A stretch of 64,000 nt of DNA from Podarcis melisellensis (Eukaryota): NCBI GenBank assembly GCA_964234715.1, contig OZ174286.1. One strand, written 5' to 3'. The notes beneath the pieces are model-generated. The model saw only the letters and a list, made by a program, of their open reading frames with translations, made no database searches and was not told the DNA's origin. Both the position numbers and the translations under genes were made by a program. Shown here one piece after another: positions 11,292 through 60,918 of the stretch (position 1 is the first letter of the stretch; every line of letters begins with the position of its first letter).

Positions 11292-11574
11292 ATATTATTT
11301 ATACCCCGCCCATCTAGCTGGGTTTCCCCAGACACTCTGGGAGGCTCCCAACAGAATATTAATAAATATGAATTAAGGAAGAACATATCATTTCTTCATG
11401 GATGCAATGGCAAATGCACGTCTGGTCTTGCACACCACTTAGGAGGTTGGAGTATTGGATCTCGGTTACTCACCAGCTCACAGAATTTTTATGCGGGCAA
11501 AAATGAGGAATTGTCATATATTCTGCCCTGAGTTTCTTGGAGTATGGCTGGGATATAAATGCAATTTATAGAGA

Positions 11575-11641
11575 TGGTGGTTGGTTGGTTGGTTGGTTGG
11601 TTGGTTGGTTGGTTGGATGGATGGATGAAGGAATGGATGGA
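11575..11641. repeat. (GGTT)n(GGAT)n compound microsatellite
   Basis: Read directly. Confidence 0.9.
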
Positions 11642-12084
11642 CATTTTGGGTACAATACTATGGTCACTGCGAGGGCCTCCTGGGAGACATAGGATACTGT
11701 GGAGCTTTCCTTCCTCAGAGAGGAAGTGGCAGCTCCTCTGCCATGAACTCTCCCCACCTTGACCTCCATGGGGTTGCTCCTTCCATTATTACTGTTTTTT
11801 ATTTACAAAAATGTACAATCCCCAGTCAAAAGATCCTCAAACCAGAGAACCACAAATCAAAGCAAGAACAGTAACACAATGACGTAACATGAAAATAAAA
11901 ACTCATCAACAGACGTCAACATAGCACCACAGGTAACTAAATCTACTCAGGGTTAAAAAGTCTGCCTGAAAACAATCAAACAATAGTACAGCATGAGAAT
12001 TTGGTTTAATTTAATGTGTAGGGATGAAACTGTAATGCAGAAATACAGAACATACCAACCATATGCTCTCTGTTGCCCATAGAC

Positions 12085-13402: not shown

Positions 13403-13770
13403 ATGCTAATGTTGTTGGGCCCTTAACTGGACCTTTGCGTCAAACCCTTAGTAGTGAGTCTCCCCAAGGAGCAAAGACTATTCCTGCTATGATCTCTGAC
13501 TGCCAGACTCAAAAACAAAAACAAAGCAGGTCAAATGAACACCCCCCCCCCACAAAACTTATGTGGTGCTACAATAGCCAGAATGTTGCTTATGCCCTCG
13601 TCATGGGATGTGTGAATATCAGACACTACTGCCTGTCAACTCGCGCGTTGACTTCGTACCTTGCTAACTGCTGCAAAATGGTTACAGGAGCATATCAGGC
13701 AAAATTTTGGCACCACCTAGAATAATTTCCTTGGGGGAGAGACAAAGACTTTTTAAAAATGTGTACGTAC

Positions 13771-13889
13771 ATTTAGCTGTCAGTTTGTACCCGCCCAGAG
13801 GAGGGTCGTGGCCTTCCACGGCATCAAAGCCAGCCGATACTAAGACAAAGTCGGGCTCGAACTCAGAGGCGATGGGCATAATCACAGTC
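13771..13889 (-). CDS. HDAC9: HDAC9 coding exon (119 bp; [40 protein letters not shown]), Zn-binding GFD motif
   Basis: Lies within ORF 13682..13924. Minus strand reads ...gtcttcag|GACTGTGATT...GCTAAAT|gtacgt. SAGFDA..GH..PLGGY is the class IIa signature. Confidence 0.93.
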
Positions 13890-15166
13890 CTGAAGACAAA
13901 GAATAGGCAAAGGGTTATGAACAAGAGGCTTCATTTAAAACGCACTGATTAGCATGATACCATAATTAGCTGCCATCTAGCTCATCTCCCTCGAAGTTTA
14001 CTTCCATGTTCATTTTCTCTCTCCCTACTTTCTGCAGATTTTTAATATTATTATTATAAAAAGACCCCCATAATTTGCAGGTACATGCGAGAGCTTCTAA
14101 CGTTACACCCACATCTGGGCCTGTTTTACCCTTCTGCCTATAAAGGCTGACTCTTCGAGGGAAGTGACTAATGGATTACAAAGAGAACTCTGAGGTCTCA
14201 GTGGAAACCTGCATTGCTCCAGTGAGTGAGAACTTGATGTAAATTTGAACTATAAATTTCTTTGGGGGGAAATGTTTGCTTTTTAAACTTATCCCCATCC
14301 TCTTAACATTTTAAAATGTTTGCCAAGATGGGGGGGGGGGTAACTCTTGTAGAAAGGGTGGGGTGAGGACACATACAAATTCCCATAATCAAATTCAGGC
14401 CCCGCTCTCAGGCATTTTCTGAGGTCATGCCTGGTAGGAATTTGGCTACCACAAATCAGGAAAAGCACCCCCTGCTGGTTTCAGGAAGAAACTTCGAGGC
14501 TTTTCGATTCTCAACTTATTAACTCCTTCTTATCCAGTGTTTTAGATCAGCCTCTTCGTTTCGGGCCAGCCCTACAAGGGTTAGGTGAAGCAGTTCACTT
14601 TGGGCAGTGGAATTAAGGGGAAACTGATTTCTGAATGGGGAGACAAGCCTATTTTTTAAGTGTTGGCCATCGCAAAGGGGAAGAGGTGTCCTTTGGCAGC
14701 AAAACGTCTTAGGTTGGCAAGAATTTGGAATCAGTTTGTCAGTGTCAAGGTGAAGGCCTGTCTAAACCAGAAATCTTCACATTGGTATTTCAAGAGTCTA
14801 GCCCTCAGTGACTTGAAAATTCAATGACATATTTAGTAATTCAGCAGGGTGGTCACTTACAAGTCACCCAAAAAAGAGGGATGCCTCAGCAGCAACAAAA
14901 AAGGACACATATTTGCAGAAAATGTGCACATGTTGATTCATGTATAAATGCAATTTTTTACATAATTACTATTCTTAAATAGAAATACTCTATAAGGTCG
15001 CACTATAGCGGAAACACTGTGGCCAAGCAGCCTGTAAGACTCAGTCTGCTATAACTGTTGATGGGCTGCCTCAAGGCTCTGGCTCTCCATTCCCAGGACT
15101 TGGACCAGACAGCCCTTCAAACAGAGGACTGTCAGCACCATACTTCAATTAGAGGACTGTCCTATG

Positions 15167-26604: not shown

Positions 26605-27371
26605 TGTCAGGGTTTCTGGGAGAGAGGAGGAGATGACAGAGGAGACGGAGAGCGAGTGGGAGGAGGGGCAGAAGGATGAGGAAGAAGATGACGGAATTCT
26701 GAGGGAATCCACGAGTCTGAGCAGCGAGTCAGAGGATTCTCAAAAGGGGGTTACCTTAATCAAGCAAAAGGGAGGAGAAGGGAGAAGCGGAGAGGAGCCC
26801 AGTGGAAGACAGACGCAGCAAGAGGCGTCTCAGCCGGAACGGAGTAAAGGGGGTGGAGTCGTCAGCCTCTCGGAGGGAGCAGGATTAGGAGAGAACAGAG
26901 AAAGGGGGTTGGAGCAAGGTGTTCAGCCGGAAAGGGTGGAGAGCAGAACAAGGGGTGGTGTAGCGGTCGAAAGAAAGGTCAGCAGCAACGTACGCGCGCC
27001 AAGTTCAAACGTAGAGGCGCGCGGAAGTGGAGAGAGCTCAGGGGAGGAGCCCGGCCCTAAAGCCAGAAGGAGGGGGGAAGAGGCGGCAGAGGATTCAGCC
27101 TCAGGCGAGTCGCGGAGAGAGGGAACCCAGGGGGGCAGGAAGACCCTGCGGAAAAGAAAGGAGAGGAAGAGGTGGTCTAGAGCCAGGCTATTAAGTTGGT
27201 GTGGAAGAGGGGAGGAGTCAGAGGGGACTTCAGCGGTCTAACGTGACAGACGTACGGCCACGATGCTGAACTGTACGAGAAGCAGAAATCTTCAATAAAC
27301 TTTTCCTGTAAATAAACTGCAACGGAGTGAGGTCTCTTGTGAGCTGGGACCCGTCCTGGGTGGCCGTGACA
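26605..27371 (+). repeat. 5' LTR (767 bp)
   Basis: TG...CA termini. No difference from 32333-33099 seen by eye. TATTAA at 27189-27194; AATAAA at 27294-27299 and 27311-27316. Confidence 0.97.
27189..27230 (+). promoter_or_regulatory. Predicted LTR core promoter (TATA-like TATTAA, initiator TCA+1G; predicted TSS 27220)
   Basis: TATTAA lies 31 nt upstream of the A in TCAG. The predicted +1 coincides with the start of the 11-mer complementary to the PBS. Confidence 0.7.
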
Positions 27372-27373
27372 GT

Positions 27374-27384
27374 AAGTCCCCTCT
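27374..27384 (+). promoter_or_regulatory. Self-priming primer-binding site (AAGTCCCCTCT)
   Basis: Starts at the third nucleotide after the 5' LTR and is the exact reverse complement of AGAGGGGACTT (27220-27230). There is no TGG tRNA-type PBS. Confidence 0.85.
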
Positions 27385-27431
27385 CAGAAAGCAAAAAATT
27401 TTTTTTGCGAAGCTCACGAACGGGAGCAGCC

Positions 27432-28508
27432 ATGAGCGCTGAGGAGCAGCTGGTTGCACTGCGGGATCAGGTTACCGCTCTCACATCGGCAGTCATTGCT
27501 TCGCAGAAGAAGAATGACGACTTGGAGAAGACGTGCCAGGATTTGCAGGCAAGGTGGGAACACGCGGACAGGGCGGGGGCCCCAGGTTCCAGAGCGGAGG
27601 GCATTGCGCTTGGACGGAGGGGGGGTGCCCTGGTTCCGCATTTTAATGGCAACTTGCAAGACTATCCCAATTTCAGAGCGGACGTCGTATATGCACTGCA
27701 TTTACTCCGTCACGATTTTAAAGATGAGGAGGAGAAAGTGGGGTTCATTGTTTCGCACCTGCATGGGGAGGCCAGGGCTTGGCTACGCAATCTGTGGCGC
27801 GAAGATGGACCGGCCCGTCGCAATTCAACTGCGTTCATCAAAGCGATGGATTCTTGTTTTCAATCCTCTGTGGATGTGGACATTGCGCGCCGTCAAATGC
27901 ACGGGCTGAGGCAGGGGAAAGCGACTGTGCGCCAATACCACTCTAAATTTTTTGCATTGCTCACCGCCTTAGATTGGCCAAAGGACAGTAAGCCGGTCAG
28001 AGATCTTTTTTGGGAGGGATTGAGCCCCCCCATCAAGGATGAGATCGCTAGGGGGGACAGACCCCAGACCCTAGAAGACGTGGTGCAACGGGCTTTAGCT
28101 ATTGGAATTCGACATGAGGGACGTCCGTGGCACGAGGAGGACGGGCCCCAAGCGCGTGCGCAAGCGAGGACTCTCCCTTTTGTGCACAGGGATTTCAGCC
28201 GTGCGCACCCCTCGCCAATGGGGAAGGACAGCGAGGAGCCGATGGAGATTGGTGGTGCTAGGGCTCAGAAGCCGTCCCAGAGCCCTGTCCCTGGTGCAGC
28301 CAAAGCGAAGCCTCCTAGAGGAACCAGGAAGTGTTACATCTGTGACAGTGCGCACCATATGGCGAAAGAGTGCCCCCAGAGGCTCCAGAAGCACACTGCA
28401 GCACTGGCAACTGTAACAGCAGAGGTGCAACCAGGGGAGCAGCTTCAGGGAAACGACAGTGCCTGGCTGGAAGCAGAGCTACTGGGGCTCAGCCAGGCGG
28501 ATCTGTAG
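27432..28508 (+). CDS. gag: Gag (358 aa): N-terminal coiled coil, retrotransposon capsid, PMEIG motif, CCHC zinc knuckle
   Basis: ATG in GCAGCCATGA context within ORF 27327..28508. Contains LRQGKATVRQY (major-homology-like), EEPMEIG and CYICDSAHHMAKEC (C-X2-C-X4-H-X4-C). Confidence 0.93.
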   Translation: MSAEEQLVALRDQVTALTSAVIASQKKNDDLEKTCQDLQARWEHADRAGAPGSRAEGIALGRRGGALVPHFNGNLQDYPNFRADVVYALHLLRHDFKDEEEKVGFIVSHLHGEARAWLRNLWREDGPARRNSTAFIKAMDSCFQSSVDVDIARRQMHGLRQGKATVRQYHSKFFALLTALDWPKDSKPVRDLFWEGLSPPIKDEIARGDRPQTLEDVVQRALAIGIRHEGRPWHEEDGPQARAQARTLPFVHRDFSRAHPSPMGKDSEEPMEIGGARAQKPSQSPVPGAAKAKPPRGTRKCYICDSAHHMAKECPQRLQKHTAALATVTAEVQPGEQLQGNDSAWLEAELLGLSQADL

Positions 28509-28520
28509 ACAAGCCCCCAG
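28448..28520 (+). promoter_or_regulatory. -1 programmed ribosomal frameshift signal (G GGA AAC plus predicted H-type pseudoknot)
   Basis: The heptamer 28448-28454 is in the gag frame and pol is in the -1 frame. After a 6-nt spacer, stem 1 is GCCTGGCTG (28461-28469) / CAGCCAGGC (28490-28498). Loop GGGGCT (28484-28489) can pair with AGCCCC (28512-28517). Confidence 0.88.
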
Positions 28521-31426
28521 CATCACTGCAGAGCGTGGACCCTTTGCCTCCCAGACCGGCAGTTCTGCTCACAGCAACACTCCAGTTGCCTGATGGGAGA
28601 CTCCTCGAGGTTCCAATAACGATCGATTCGGGAAGCAACGCCGACTTCGTGGGACTGCAGTTCGTTAAGCAGCACAACATGGCGCTCCTGCCTGCAACGA
28701 CGCCTCTAAACGTGGTCACGGTAGACGGCAGGAAGTTGCTGGGGGGGCAAGTGGTGCAGCAAACCCCTCCCATGATGATGCAGATTGGCAACCATCGAGA
28801 ACTTATTAGTTTCAATGTCACCCACTTATCGGACACACCCATCGTGTTAGGCATGAGTTGGCTGGAGAGGCACAGTCCCGCGGTTGCGTGGTACCAGCGG
28901 CAGATCACCTTTTGTTCATCGTATTGTGCTCAGCATTGCTTTCAGACCGATCAGGGAGGAGAAGCCGAGCAGCAGTTGCATCTGGGTATGGTGCAAACAG
29001 TGCCTCACAAGTACCAGGACTTCTTGGAGGTTTTCTGTGAGAAGGAAGCTGACAAGTTGCCGCCTCACAGACCTTACGACTGCGCGATTGATTTAGTGCC
29101 AGGGGCGCAACTGCCTGCTGCCAAGCTGTACTCCATGTCGGAAGACGAGATGCAAGAGCTTCGGGAGTTCATAGACCATAACCTCAAGCGAGGTTTCATC
29201 CAGGAATCTAAAGCAGCGGGTGGCAGCCCTGTGTTCTTTGTGAAGAAGAAAAACACGCCCCAAAAAAGGCTTATAGTGGATTACAGGTTCATAAACAGCT
29301 TGACTAAGCCCAAAGCTTTCCCCATGCCCAAGATTGACGACCTTTTAGCGACCGTCAGGAGGGGCAAGATTTTCACCAAGCTGGACCTACGTGGAGCTTA
29401 CAATCTCATCCGCATCCGGAAAGGAGATGAGTGGAAGACCGCCATGTTCACCCCTCTGGGCACATACGAATACAGAGTCATGCCTTTCGGTCTCCAAAAT
29501 GGCAGCCACGTTTTTCAAGCATTTATGCACCACGTGCTAGCAGGTCTCCTCTACAAGAAGTGTGTCTGCTTTCTCGACGATATCCTGATTTTCTCGGAAT
29601 CGCCGGAGGATCACGATAAGGACGTGAGGGAGGTCCTGCAGAGGCTGAAGGACCACAGGCTGTACGCCAAGTTGGAAAAATGCCAGTTTGATGTCAGAGA
29701 GGTTGATTTCCTTGGCTACAAGTTGTCCGACGAGGGACTGGCCATGGACAGGGCTAAGGTTCAAGCGCTGTTGGACTGGAAAAGCCCTCGAAATCGGAAA
29801 GAGGTCCAGAGGTTCATCGGCTTTGCCAATTTTTACCGCAAGTTTATTAAAGGTTTTGCGAACGCGACGGCGGCTATCACTGACACCCTCAGTTCCAAGA
29901 AGAAGAAGTTCGTCTGGACCGAACAAGCGGAGCGGTCCTTCCGGACGCTTAAAGGTCTTTTCGCCTCCGAAGAGCAGCTGCTCCACGTGAATCCCGGCAG
30001 ACCCATGCGGGTAGAGACCGATGCGTCAGACAGAGCGGTTGGGGCCGTTCTTTTGCAAGAGGATTCACAAGGCAACTGGAGACCGGGTGCGTTCTACTCC
30101 CGGAAGCTCAGCAAGACGGAGCGCAATTATACCATATGGGACAGGGAGTTGTTGGCCATTCATGCAGCTTTCAAAGCGTGGCGACACTTCTTACTAGGAG
30201 CCAAGCACACGGTGCAAGTCCGCACGGATCACAAGAACTTAGAGTATTGGCGGACGGCTAAGTTACAGACCCAGCGACACATGCGCTGGGCGGAGTTCTT
30301 TGCGGATTTCGACTTCAAAATAGAATACATCCCAGGAGACTCCAATGTTATTGCAGACGCGCTGTCCCGAAAGCCGCAATACTTGGAGGAAGCAGCTCCA
30401 ATCGCAGCAAAGCACATTTTCGCACCGCAGGCGTGGACGTGCGCTACCATCGCAGTCGACCTGGACGCGGTGCGACGCGCGTTGCAAAGGGATCAGTTTG
30501 CACAGTCCAAGATGGAGGAGCTACGCGGAGGGTCGCGAGACAACGATGAGTTCCAATTGCAAGATGGACTTTTGACTCGTAAGGGTGCCCTTTACGTGCC
30601 CACCGACGATCTTCGAGCCAAGGTTCTGCAACAATTGCATGACGCCCCTAGTGCAGGCCATTTCGGCAAAGAGAAGACGATGGAGTTGGTGGCTAGAGAC
30701 TTTTGGTGGCCCCAGATGAGAGGAGAGGTGGCGGACTACGTCGCCAGGTGTGATATCTGCCAGAGGTCCAAACCAGTGCACCAGAAGCAGGCGGGATTGC
30801 TAGAACCGCTGGAGACACCGCAGCAACCGTGGGAGAGGGTAGCGTTGGACTTTGTTACGGACCTGCCCAGCTCCAGAGGTAAGACGGCGGTGTTAGTGGT
30901 GGTGGACTTGTTCACCAAGATGGCGCATTTCATCCCTTGTGCCAAGGTGGCGACGGCAGAACAGACCGCAAAGCTCTTCATCGATCACGTCTTCAGAGTG
31001 CATGGACTTCCGCAGTCCGTCTTGTCCGACAGGGGGCGCCAGTTTGTTTCCACTTTCTGGCGAAAGCTTCTGGGCATCTTGCACGTCAAAATCAACCTGA
31101 CATCGGCGAGACATCCACAAACCAACGGTCAAGCGGAGAGGGTCAACGCGATCATGCAGCAGTACCTGCGGTGCTACGCCAACCAGCGACCTGCGGCGTG
31201 GGTGGACTATCTGCCGATGGCTGAATTCGCCTACAACAACACGAAACACGCATCCACCGGGGTGACGCCTTTCTTCGCGAACAATGGCCGTCATCCCAGA
31301 ACCTTCCCGAGATTTGCGGCACCAGGAGGGGGGGGGGCCTCAAGATGCCGACCAGTTTGCAGCGGAGTTGCAAGAGGTGCACGAGGAGCTGCGGAGACAT
31401 TTGGAGCTGGCAAAACAGGCGTATAA
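28454..31426 (+). CDS. pol: Pol, part 1: aspartic protease, reverse transcriptase, RNase H, integrase HHCC and DDE core
   Basis: ORF 28370..31426 has IDSG (protease); KLDLRGAY, MPFGL and FLDD (RT); ETDAS, RELLA, TDHKNL and ADALSR (RNase H); H-X6-H...C-X2-C, LDF, SDRG and GQAERVN (integrase). Homology appears to shift frame near 31328-31337. Confidence 0.93.
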   Translation, partial: RQCLAGSRATGAQPGGSVDKPPASLQSVDPLPPRPAVLLTATLQLPDGRLLEVPITIDSGSNADFVGLQFVKQHNMALLPATTPLNVVTVDGRKLLGGQVVQQTPPMMMQIGNHRELISFNVTHLSDTPIVLGMSWLERHSPAVAWYQRQITFCSSYCAQHCFQTDQGGEAEQQLHLGMVQTVPHKYQDFLEVFCEKEADKLPPHRPYDCAIDLVPGAQLPAAKLYSMSEDEMQELREFIDHNLKRGFIQESKAAGGSPVFFVKKKNTPQKRLIVDYRFINSLTKPKAFPMPKIDDLLATVRRGKIFTKLDLRGAYNLIRIRKGDEWKTAMFTPLGTYEYRVMPFGLQNGSHVFQAFMHHVLAGLLYKKCVCFLDDILIFSESPEDHDKDVREVLQRLKDHRLYAKLEKCQFDVREVDFLGYKLSDEGLAMDRAKVQALLDWKSPRNRKEVQRFIGFANFYRKFIKGFANATAAITDTLSSKKKKFVWTEQAERSFRTLKGLFASEEQLLHVNPGRPMRVETDASDRAVGAVLLQEDSQGNWRPGAFYSRKLSKTERNYTIWDRELLAIHAAFKAWRHFLLGAKHTVQVRTDHKNLEYWRTAKLQTQRHMRWAEFFADFDFKIEYIPGDSNVIADALSRKPQYLEEAAPIAAKHIFAPQAWTCATIAVDLDAVRRALQRDQFAQSKMEELRGGSRDNDEFQLQDGLLTRKGALYVPTDDLRAKVLQQLHDAPSAGHFGKEKTMELVARDFWWPQMRGEVADYVARCDICQRSKPVHQKQAGLLEPLETPQQPWERVALDFVTDLPSSRGKTAVLVVVDLFTKMAHFIPCAKVATAEQTAKLFIDHVFRVHGLPQSVLSDRGRQFVSTFWRKLLGILHVKINLTSARHPQTNGQAERVNAIMQQYLRCYANQRPAAWVDYLPMAEFAYNNTKHASTGVTPFFANNGRHPRTFPRFAAPGGGGASRCRPVCSGVARGARGAAETFGAGKTGV

Positions 31427-32969
31427 GGTGCAGGCCGATAAGCACAGGAGGGCGGGAGAGGACATCCAGATTGGGGACTGGGTGTGGTTAGCAGCCCACG
31501 CGATGCCGGCCAGGTCATTGGCCAAGAAGAAGTTAGGACACAGGCAGCTAGGGCCATATCAAGTTGAGGCTAAGATCAATCCGGTGGCTTTTCGTCTAGC
31601 CCTTCCGGAGGGTTCCAGGGTGCACCCGGTCTTTCATAGGTCGGTGCTCACTCCCTACAAAACCCCACACAGGTTTCAAGAGTCAGGAGCACTCCCAGAG
31701 CCACGTAGGAGGGCGCCTGAGGGGGGGGAATCGCCAAGACCAGAACCTCTTAACGAGGTCACAGAGATACTGGACTCGAGATGGGGGGAGGAGGGAGTTG
31801 AATATTTTCTAGCCAGGGAAGGCACTCCGGCCTCTGCCAATAGCTGGGTGCCGGGTTACGCGTTGGACGAACCCCTGTTGAAGGAGGAGTTCCATGCACT
31901 TTTTCCGCACAAGCCCATGCCCGAGGAGTATTTTGATGATTGGCTTTTCACGCCCACTTTGTCAGACAGCACGTTCGAGGGTTTCTCCTCACCCGAGGGC
32001 CATACGCCCGAAACAAGCCCGACCAGGGATCCGAGACTGGGGGGGGAGGAGACAGGCCCTTGTTGGTGGGTGGATCAGCCAAGGGAGGCATGGAGTCAGA
32101 GATGGATGGTAGGTCCTTGGCAGGCAGCGCCAGGAGAAGCAGTGATGGAGGAAGAGACTGTGAGGTCTGTGGGTGGGGAACCCGAGTTCGAACACACATA
32201 TACGGAGATGACAGAGGAGAACGTTGAAGTGGACAACTTGTATCCTGAACCGACCCCGGAAGAACCACGTTTTCCTCAACCTGCACCCGGCGAGCGGGAG
32301 GGGGGAAGGGGGGGCTTCGAGGGGGGGATGGATGTCAGGGTTTCTGGGAGAGAGGAGGAGATGACAGAGGAGACGGAGAGCGAGTGGGAGGAGGGGCAGA
32401 AGGATGAGGAAGAAGATGACGGAATTCTGAGGGAATCCACGAGTCTGAGCAGCGAGTCAGAGGATTCTCAAAAGGGGGTTACCTTAATCAAGCAAAAGGG
32501 AGGAGAAGGGAGAAGCGGAGAGGAGCCCAGTGGAAGACAGACGCAGCAAGAGGCGTCTCAGCCGGAACGGAGTAAAGGGGGTGGAGTCGTCAGCCTCTCG
32601 GAGGGAGCAGGATTAGGAGAGAACAGAGAAAGGGGGTTGGAGCAAGGTGTTCAGCCGGAAAGGGTGGAGAGCAGAACAAGGGGTGGTGTAGCGGTCGAAA
32701 GAAAGGTCAGCAGCAACGTACGCGCGCCAAGTTCAAACGTAGAGGCGCGCGGAAGTGGAGAGAGCTCAGGGGAGGAGCCCGGCCCTAAAGCCAGAAGGAG
32801 GGGGGAAGAGGCGGCAGAGGATTCAGCCTCAGGCGAGTCGCGGAGAGAGGGAACCCAGGGGGGCAGGAAGACCCTGCGGAAAAGAAAGGAGAGGAAGAGG
32901 TGGTCTAGAGCCAGGCTATTAAGTTGGTGTGGAAGAGGGGAGGAGTCAGAGGGGACTTCAGCGGTCTAA
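31338..32969 (+). CDS. pol: Pol, part 2: integrase C-terminus (GPY/F), degenerate chromodomain, long acidic/basic tail extending through U3 of the 3' LTR
   Basis: ORF 31284..32969 is in the +1 frame relative to part 1. It has YKVQADKHRR, GDWVWL, LGPYQV (31551-31559), VHPVFHRSVL and the chromodomain-like EVTEILDSR...NSWVP...EFH (31752-31916). The TAA stop at 32967-32969 lies inside the 3' LTR. Confidence 0.85.
   Translation, partial: PQDADQFAAELQEVHEELRRHLELAKQAYKVQADKHRRAGEDIQIGDWVWLAAHAMPARSLAKKKLGHRQLGPYQVEAKINPVAFRLALPEGSRVHPVFHRSVLTPYKTPHRFQESGALPEPRRRAPEGGESPRPEPLNEVTEILDSRWGEEGVEYFLAREGTPASANSWVPGYALDEPLLKEEFHALFPHKPMPEEYFDDWLFTPTLSDSTFEGFSSPEGHTPETSPTRDPRLGGEETGPCWWVDQPREAWSQRWMVGPWQAAPGEAVMEEETVRSVGGEPEFEHTYTEMTEENVEVDNLYPEPTPEEPRFPQPAPGEREGGRGGFEGGMDVRVSGREEEMTEETESEWEEGQKDEEEDDGILRESTSLSSESEDSQKGVTLIKQKGGEGRSGEEPSGRQTQQEASQPERSKGGGVVSLSEGAGLGENRERGLEQGVQPERVESRTRGGVAVERKVSSNVRAPSSNVEARGSGESSGEEPGPKARRRGEEAAEDSASGESRREGTQGGRKTLRKRKERKRWSRARLLSWCGRGEESEGTSAV
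32319..32332 (+). promoter_or_regulatory. Polypurine tract of the Gypsy element
   Basis: GAGGGGGGGATGGA directly before the 3' LTR TG, with further G/A runs just upstream. Confidence 0.85.
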
Positions 32970-33099
32970 CGTGACAGACGTACGGCCACGATGCTGAACT
33001 GTACGAGAAGCAGAAATCTTCAATAAACTTTTCCTGTAAATAAACTGCAACGGAGTGAGGTCTCTTGTGAGCTGGGACCCGTCCTGGGTGGCCGTGACA
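32333..33099 (+). repeat. 3' LTR (767 bp)
   Basis: Direct repeat of 26605-27371, preceded by a polypurine tract and followed by the TSD CAAAG. Confidence 0.97.
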
Positions 33100-49865: not shown

Positions 49866-50200
49866 CTGAAAGGAGAAGTGGGAGAGGGGGGAGAAGTGCC
49901 AGAGGAAGGGGGGTGGGAGAGAGGAAAGGCCAGGAGTGAATCAAAATAAGAAAACATCCAAAAAACGTCCTTTTGAAACAAACATCAAACGGCATGTCAA
50001 ATCAACCTGGCCCCCATTTGACAAGGACTGTTCTGGGTTATGCACTTGTTCTGCGCTGGTCCCTTGGCCCCAGTGGACTATTTGGTAATCTAGTGCAATT
50101 TAAAGCACCAGTCGAGGATGAGAAAATTAGGGGTAATCATGCAACGCAATTACCCGAAAAGATACAAATAAAATTGGGGCTCTAAAGAAATAAACCTAAC

Positions 50201-50320
50201 CTCATTTGGGTCTCCGCTGCCAGGGAAGAAGTTGCCTTCATCATAGCGATGGAGAGAGACATACAGGATGCTGGGGTCAGCATAAAAAGCCTGCTGTGTA
50301 CCGTTGCCATGGTGAACATC
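50201..50320 (-). CDS. HDAC9: HDAC9 coding exon (120 bp; [40 protein letters not shown]), Zn-binding DVH motif
   Basis: Minus strand reads ...cccctttag|GATGTTCAC...CCAAATGAG|gttagg. It is a phase 0-0 exon of 40 codons. Confidence 0.95.
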
Positions 50321-60562: not shown

Positions 60563-60650
60563 CAGATCTACAATCAATATCTTGCCTATATTTAGCTTGT
60601 CTCTCAAGTATTTGGCAGTAATTGCAACCGAATTAAAAAAGCAGAACCCC
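60563..60650 (-). CDS. HDAC9: HDAC9 coding exon (88 bp; GFCFFNSVAITAKYLRDKLNIGKILIVDL)
   Basis: Minus strand reads ...tattccacag|GGGGTTCTGC...GTAGATCTG|gtatgt. The AITAKYLRD...LNI.KILIVDL stretch is HDAC9-type rather than HDAC4/5/7. Confidence 0.95.
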
Positions 60651-60918
60651 CTGTGGAATAGAGAAGAACAGAAATTTTACAAAGCACATCAGTCAGGAAA
60701 ACAGTTATAAATAATGTTCAGGGCATGCGTGTGTGTATGTGTGTGTTTTAAAAAAACCCCACTATATGATCTCTAAGACCATAAATCTGCTTCTGTGAGT
60801 ACCTCAAAAACCTTTTCGGTCATCTGCTAACAATTAGAGTTCCCCAGAGACATGCACAATGCAGGTGATTGCCAGTAACCCTAGCACTCCAAGATGGGCA
60901 ATATTCCCTGGTACTTAC

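Follow-up and report, generated by a model that had tools for sequence, protein, structure and literature searches.

Chromoviruses of the Tf1/sushi group (the GyDB V-clade, with Sushi-ichi and Amn) carry gag, a pol gene in the order protease (PR), reverse transcriptase (RT), RNase H (RH) and integrase (IN), a GPY/F domain with a chromodomain, and a self-priming primer binding site (PBS) in place of a tRNA site (PMC6317226). Their long terminal repeats (LTRs) are described for the Sushi group as having TGT...TNACA termini, an AATAAA near the LTR end and a T-rich U3 (PMC3601003). A pol frame that extends into the 3' LTR is described for the plant CRM group A and for the beet elements Beetle and Bingo (PMC3059260, PMC3605345); as far as the available text of these sources goes, a CR motif replaces the chromodomain in group A. 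Long open reading frames inside U3 are represented by HIV nef and MMTV sag (PMC2664473), of which nef takes up about half of U3. Both are separate accessory genes. In the yeast copia element Ty1, integrase is described as having an extensive disordered tail that includes an NLS and a short motif for targeting through a host protein (PMC8487063, PMC7459421); this tail lies between IN and RT, is not coded by the LTR and has Pol III AC40 as its partner.

The lizard element analyzed here shares the gene order, domains and self-priming PBS of the Tf1/sushi group and the LTR termini and AATAAA of Sushi elements. It departs from the Sushi LTR model in a U3 that is G/A-rich (42% G, 12% T) and coding, and from the Tf1/sushi group in a tail of 350 codons past the chromodomain. 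As in CRM group A, the polyprotein frame enters the 3' LTR, but the lizard element belongs to a different lineage, is self-priming while the plant CRM elements are primed by tRNA-Met, has its chromodomain upstream of the polypurine tract (PPT), and has a frame that covers all of U3, a TATA-like box and the start site. Since pol of the plant CRM elements already runs into the 3' LTR, the lizard case is a variant of a known arrangement, and an earlier note on this DNA, in which U3-overlapping frames were held to be mainly retroviral, overlooked these CRM-clade chromoviruses (PMC3059260, PMC3605345). The frame resembles nef and sag in being long and inside U3 and differs from them in being continuous with pol. 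A literature search, with most subscription journals, Repbase notes and supplements outside its scope, returned no coding U3 in a vertebrate gypsy element.

The element and its reading frame

The window, meaning the whole stretch of 64,000 nucleotides from Podarcis melisellensis, contains at 26605-33099 a very young gypsy chromovirus of the Tf1/sushi type. The assignment is based on the LTRs and target site duplication, Pfam domains, the self-priming PBS and a match to SH3_Tf2-1. A CAAAG duplication lies directly outside both LTRs, and gag and a pol gene in the order PR-RT-RH-IN were found between them:

26605..27371, + strand: 5' LTR, 767 nt, TG...CA, no differences from the 3' LTR
27432..28508, + strand: gag with Ty3 capsid, Retrotrans_gag and zinc knuckle (Pfam)
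28346..31426, + strand: pol core frame with PR, RT, RNase H, integrase zinc finger and core (Pfam and open reading frame)
31473..31658, + strand: GPY/F (SH3_Tf2-1) domain of integrase (Pfam E 3e-16)
31755..31904, + strand: degenerate chromodomain, below the Pfam cut-off
31917..32332, + strand: internal part of the integrase tail, acidic
32319..32332, + strand: PPT, in frame with the tail
32333..33099, + strand: 3' LTR, 767 nt
32333..32969, + strand: LTR-coded part of the tail, 211 codons, comprising the entire U3 (615 nt) plus 22 nt of R
33022..33027, + strand: AATAAA poly(A) signal, kept in subfamilies A-D

A DNA search of the genome with the element gave 521 candidates, 40 of which were scored and all rounded to 100% identity; these nearly identical copies and the identical LTRs indicate that the family (A) is very young. 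The nearest named proteins are from Podarcis wall lizards, the only genus among the named relatives. Automatic UniRef models of Podarcis already include the tail without comment, and proteins of Podarcis muralis carry the same terminal motifs. The element is flanked on either side by minus-strand exons of a histone deacetylase-domain gene (13742-13897, 50198-50320 and 60563-60652), which makes it intronic and antisense to the host gene; this is one insertion and makes no statement on insertion bias. A short low-complexity repeat at 11492-11802 on the minus strand gave weak Pfam PT matches below cut-off.

The frame carrying the tail is open for 567 codons (31266-32969, + strand) and runs through the GPY/F-SH3 domain, the weak chromodomain and the PPT to a TAA at 32967-32969. 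This confirms the earlier description of a frame that stays open for about 350 codons past the chromodomain, over the PPT and U3, with its stop about 20 nt into R, the exact distance being 22 nt. The earlier estimate of about 13 stop triplets in U3, all outside the pol frame, was likewise accurate: the LTR part holds 13, distributed as 8 and 5 over the other two frames, and the entire tail holds 21, none of them in frame. When 32333-32966 was shuffled, a given frame was open in 0 of 3000 mononucleotide-preserving, 0.17% of dinucleotide-preserving and 0.47% of trinucleotide-preserving sequences; for the whole tail it was open in at most 1 of 3000. Open frames are thus rare at this composition.

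In the window copy a frameshift within a G run near 31330, upstream of the tail, disconnects the tail from the RT/integrase core, a defect of that copy. The claim that the pol frame runs on therefore fails for the window copy and stands for its family, as an unbroken frame of 1540 codons, in phase with integrase, passes through the PPT and all 615 nt of U3 in 82 of the 102 best protein matches to the tail in the same genome. Full copies chosen by LTR DNA match gave a similar picture, with a single 1540-codon frame in 13 of 16, the window's break in one and breaks in G runs further down in two. Searches for homologous tails with three queries led to three further subfamilies (B, C and D) in the same genome, whose integrases are 84-95% identical to that of family A. 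Each of the subfamilies A-D has copies that carry the frame through U3. It was open in 30/30 DNA matches to the LTR of family A and at full length in 27/29 (B), 27/28 (C) and 20/27 (D) LTR matches, the counts for B-D being biased because the LTR matches there were best protein matches. Of 20 elements retrieved on the basis of their long frames, 19 are open through U3 to the homologous stop and one stops early in U3.

The boundary between U3 and R was placed with the aid of the following features:

27374..27384, + strand: self-priming PBS, 11 nt, pairing with LTR position 616 onward
27220..27230, + strand: putative start of R and self-primer, 11 nt complementary to the PBS, with compensatory changes in subfamilies C and D
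32917..32922, + strand: TATA-like box inside the reading frame, 31 nt before the presumed start site

By inspection the PBS pairs with the element's own LTR and not with a tRNA. The pairing spans 9-12 nt in A-D with compensatory changes, and a self-priming PBS is also present in 4 of the 7 copies with an LTR pair in the more distant family E. Pairing with LTR position 616 would put the RNA start at 27220/32948 and gives independent support to the U3 length of 615 nt proposed earlier. It follows that in a 5' or solo LTR the U3 open reading frame precedes the presumed start and would not be transcribed from that LTR's own promoter. The ATG of this frame is missing in P0001, P0003, P0004 and families E and F and is displaced downstream by 4 codons in subfamilies B and D, so that the conserved start codon of its own that characterizes a nef/sag-type gene is absent. 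A separate U3 protein made from solo or 5' LTRs, one of the two readings offered in the earlier note, is thus unlikely. Behind the PBS (27384-27410), an A run is followed by a T run that differs in length between copies and might form a hairpin in the 5' leader.

Selection on the LTR-coded tail

In an effort to evaluate constraint on the tail, a protein-guided codon alignment was built from 16 natural copies picked for long open frames. In the LTR part, dN/dS by the NG86 method was 0.20-0.34 in 8/8 pairs, with dS between subfamilies of 0.7-1.6, similar to the pol core. Maximum likelihood (GY+F3X4) gave 0.31 (profile about 0.26-0.38) across A-D and rejected neutrality (2dL 145 against dN/dS of 1). 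The corresponding estimates were 0.40 for the internal tail and 0.07 for the integrase core, and the RT partition gave 0.04-0.08 by NG86. The two shifted sense frames yielded 2.3 and 1.4, and the antisense frame that shares third positions yielded 0.43 and contains stops, which is the expected shadow. By quarters, the LTR part gave 0.28, 0.75, 0.24 and 0.23. Some of the conservation near the tail end may act at the DNA level, as the LL/W residues there overlap the TATA-like box. Avoidance of nonsense-mediated decay was set aside as a cause because it would not lower dN/dS.

Alignments made blind to the frame agree with these estimates. Differences within U3 at codon positions 1/2/3 numbered 39/37/73 between A and C and 27/37/71 between B and D, and past the stop 11/11/7 and 7/8/7, without an excess at the third position. 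About 9-27 stop gains would be expected at these distances without selection. As to whether indels come in multiples of three, alignable pairs showed in U3 one 21-nt gap (A-C), a net change of 3 (B-D) and no gaps in three within-family pairs, two of which have 1-nt gaps past the stop, whereas in deep pairs 6 of 66 U3 gaps over 9 pairs were multiples of three in DNA alignments that break into noise there and are uninformative. The indel test is a weak one. Within family A, 14 copies of the same length have no LTR differences, and their internal tails hold 12 non-synonymous and 7 synonymous variants; the family is too young for a selection test.

A wider protein search gave 10 matches to distant relatives, and through two of these, families E and F were identified in this genome, with integrases 57% and 55% identical to that of the window's family. 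LTRs of family E measure 412-435 nt, and its frame covers the PPT and 310-331 nt of the LTR, with the stop about 24 nt beyond the self-primer. The LTR part has a dN/dS of 0.36 (2dL 51, 9 copies), so that purifying selection on the U3 frame, for which a test was proposed earlier, is found in A-D and in E. In family F, two of the three copies retrieved have about 310 nt coding in an LTR some 420 nt long. A comparison of the LTR-coded stretches in families A, E and F showed a common layout, acidic at the start and basic at the end, and no significant sequence similarity. On the evidence of sequence comparison, the U3-overlapping frame is real, is under selection as protein and is common to at least six families (A-F), and the tail is very probably a selected coding part of Gag-Pol.

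LTRs are usually taken as non-coding control DNA, while here a selected frame overlaps the promoter, the TATA-like box, the PPT and the self-primer. Several such families at high copy number form a natural test case for dual constraint on DNA and protein, and LTR-based dating and solo-LTR evolution in them are shaped by coding selection during replication.

Tail anatomy and a candidate host-binding motif

The chromodomain at the head of the tail is weak, with a Pfam E of 0.024, under the cut-off, and matches to HP1/CBX at E 0.14-0.33. Group I chromodomains are defined by a YWY cage in the text available from PMC3605345; in the alignment with HP1/CBX, the lizard domain has R and T at two cage positions, those of W and Y in HP1. 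The relatives P0013 and P0015 bear chromo-domain protein names. The U3 open reading frame, or LTR part, matched no Pfam family, and a search of the ESM Atlas with the tail gave no usable match, while the P0014 part gave chromodomain clusters only, under 0.9. Net charge changes along the tail from strongly acidic to basic at the end, a gradient kept in A-D. An AlphaFold model, built on a weak alignment of 9 sequences, is confident only within the chromodomain, with pLDDT below 50 in 323 of 404 residues, a coil-like course beyond, and a helix over the basic end. Purifying selection, the low-confidence coil-like model and the charge gradient together support the other earlier reading, a long disordered acidic/basic tail, and the tail is likely a disordered, acidic-then-basic integrase extension of about 350 residues, as far as the model can be trusted. 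Two parts of it stand out:

31923..31985, + strand: putative helix, 8-residue S/T-rich linker and FxGF, the most constrained part of the tail
32865..32915, + strand: basic NLS-like stretch in a predicted helix (dN/dS 0.16 over the last 34 codon columns)

The basic end is probably used for nuclear import. The piece right past the chromodomain (28 codons) has a dN/dS of 0.09 against 0.54 for the remaining internal tail. All 11 tails examined follow one pattern, a putative aromatic helix, a linker of 8-9 residues and FxGF; FxGF is kept in all 11, with synonymous codon changes, and occurs twice in family E. This arrangement resembles the TND-interacting motifs (TIMs) of JPO2, KMT2A and IWS1, which have a helix, an acidic or S/T linker of 8-9 residues and FxGF (PMC9987994), and by its sequence the lizard motif is a candidate TIM. 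As defined in the available text of that source, a TIM comprises a helix with F/V/L/I anchors, an acidic linker of 8-16 residues with D/E and S/T, and FxGF, which is described as essential for LEDGF and HRP2 binding; phosphorylation is described for host TIMs (PMC9987994). The aromatic/aliphatic pattern of helix anchors is present in the lizard tail, where the model has just a short low-confidence helix (residues 58-61). In contrast to host TIMs, the linker is weakly acidic in the window's family, with 0-1 D/E and 5 S/T in A, B and D and 3-7 D/E in E, F and P0016. Being S/T-rich with few D/E, the linker of A, B and D would need phosphorylation.

The TIM reading was set down before the PDB was searched with the motifs. 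The family F motif found the LEDGF-JPO2 chimera 5yi9 as the second of 2 matches (E 1) and a profile of 11 motifs found the KMT2A peptide 2msr as the third of 4 (E 0.94), neither of them significant, and the searches also gave better-scoring unrelated matches (MCM6, citrate synthase). PDB searches with the motif of the window copy itself and with one from family E gave no match. F.GF arises in 1-5% of shuffled tails, and the RT region contains one further instance. In this genome the LEDGF-type domains of the host are divided between exons; a complex prediction that paired the window motif with a host TND coded by a single exon (L191, judged TCEANC-like and not the expected partner) scored 0.02 and is uninformative. 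Docking of the motif on a TND may be entertained as a nearly balanced proposal, slightly on the doubtful side. In the available text of PMC9987994, lentiviral integrases are listed as LEDGF users and transposons are not mentioned. No FxGF motif in a retrotransposon was returned by our literature search, within the same scope as above; one of two works mentioning both terms concerns, in its available text, the host protein JIL-1 (10.1101/624023).

Proposed mechanism and competing explanations

Expression of the tail would begin with a genomic RNA that starts at R and so holds U3 only at its 3' end. The gag/pol overlap contains a putative slippage site:

28448..28454, + strand: GGGAAAC heptamer in the -1 slippage phase, with a predicted hairpin (-31 kcal/mol) behind it

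The heptamer and hairpin are present in 12/12 copies reported from subfamilies A-D. Ribosomes would slip by -1 at GGGAAAC and produce a Gag-Pol that reads on through the PPT and U3 to the stop just inside R. The tail might then remain attached to integrase or be cut off by the protease. At its basic end it would likely serve as a nuclear localisation or DNA-binding patch, and the helix-linker-FxGF start, likely a mimic of host TIMs, would link the integration complex to readers of the LEDGF/HRP2 type, next to a chromodomain without its methyl-lysine cage. With a docking motif at one end and an import signal at the other, such a tail would follow the same logic as that of Ty1 integrase. The account as a whole, a pol frame through the PPT and U3 that is conserved as protein and adds a disordered integrase tail of 350 residues for import and possible docking on chromatin readers, is in our judgement the probable one. 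A bolder version, which we put forward only tentatively, would have a clade of lizard chromoviruses turn the whole of U3 into coding sequence, with a true TIM mimic through which the integration complex is tethered to LEDGF/HRP2 at gene bodies carrying H3K36 methylation. If docking is true, a retrotransposon reaches HIV's host tether through short-motif mimicry. Insertion-site choice of vertebrate gypsy elements is little studied, and a candidate LEDGF/HRP2-type motif beside a cage-less chromodomain offers a direct entry.

Three other explanations were weighed. The tail could be a selected part of Gag-Pol that acts mainly by charge, as an acidic region resembling a histone or nucleic-acid chaperone or as an aid to particle assembly, with FxGF binding something other than a TND. 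The strong acidic-to-basic gradient kept in A-D, the few D/E in the A, B and D linker and the likeness of A, E and F in layout alone would all suit such a role; the far stronger constraint on the FxGF segment than on the rest of the internal tail, and the retention and duplication of FxGF with TIM-like spacing at 55-57% integrase identity, argue the other way and leave this explanation unlikely, if the strongest of the three. Far less credible is an open frame without selection on the protein, arising as a side effect of promoter sequence rich in purines and poor in T. Low T, high G and a TATA-like box and self-primer inside the frame are what such a promoter would offer, but composition-preserving shuffles stay open in just 0.2-0.5%, dN/dS is 0.31 and 0.36 in two separate family groups, and the excess of third-position changes is gone past the stop, so that we consider this by-product highly improbable.

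A spliced or internally initiated RNA might also yield the tail as a free-standing protein, an accessory factor comparable to nef and sag, which are expressed from spliced mRNAs. Just past the 5' LTR, GTAAGT at 27372-27377 resembles a splice donor, and GTAAG is kept in A-D; its conservation is explained by overlap with the self-priming PBS, and in a crude scan the only two strong acceptors lay in the gag/pro region, with none close to the tail. Internal initiation could use an in-frame Met that directly precedes the FxGF motif and does not vary in A-D, but families E and F have no Met at the PMP position and the start codon in U3 is not conserved. In a listing selected for this property, many copies with upstream breaks still have an open tail. 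Four contig sets contained the element without a spliced joint and are silent either way on expression. On balance a separately made tail appears improbable, and a tail read as the end of Gag-Pol is preferred.

Some features of the copies were noted in passing. The top matches of families B, C, D and E lie in many cases on contig C19 and near contig ends, unlike the family A copies among the best 102. The family A copy L031 has a dense patch of differences from the window over 29953-31111 in the RNase H region, possibly from recombination with another subfamily. Copies of subfamilies B (L167-L174) and D (L184, L186) have extra sense-strand open frames of 228-400 codons that overlap pol in another phase.
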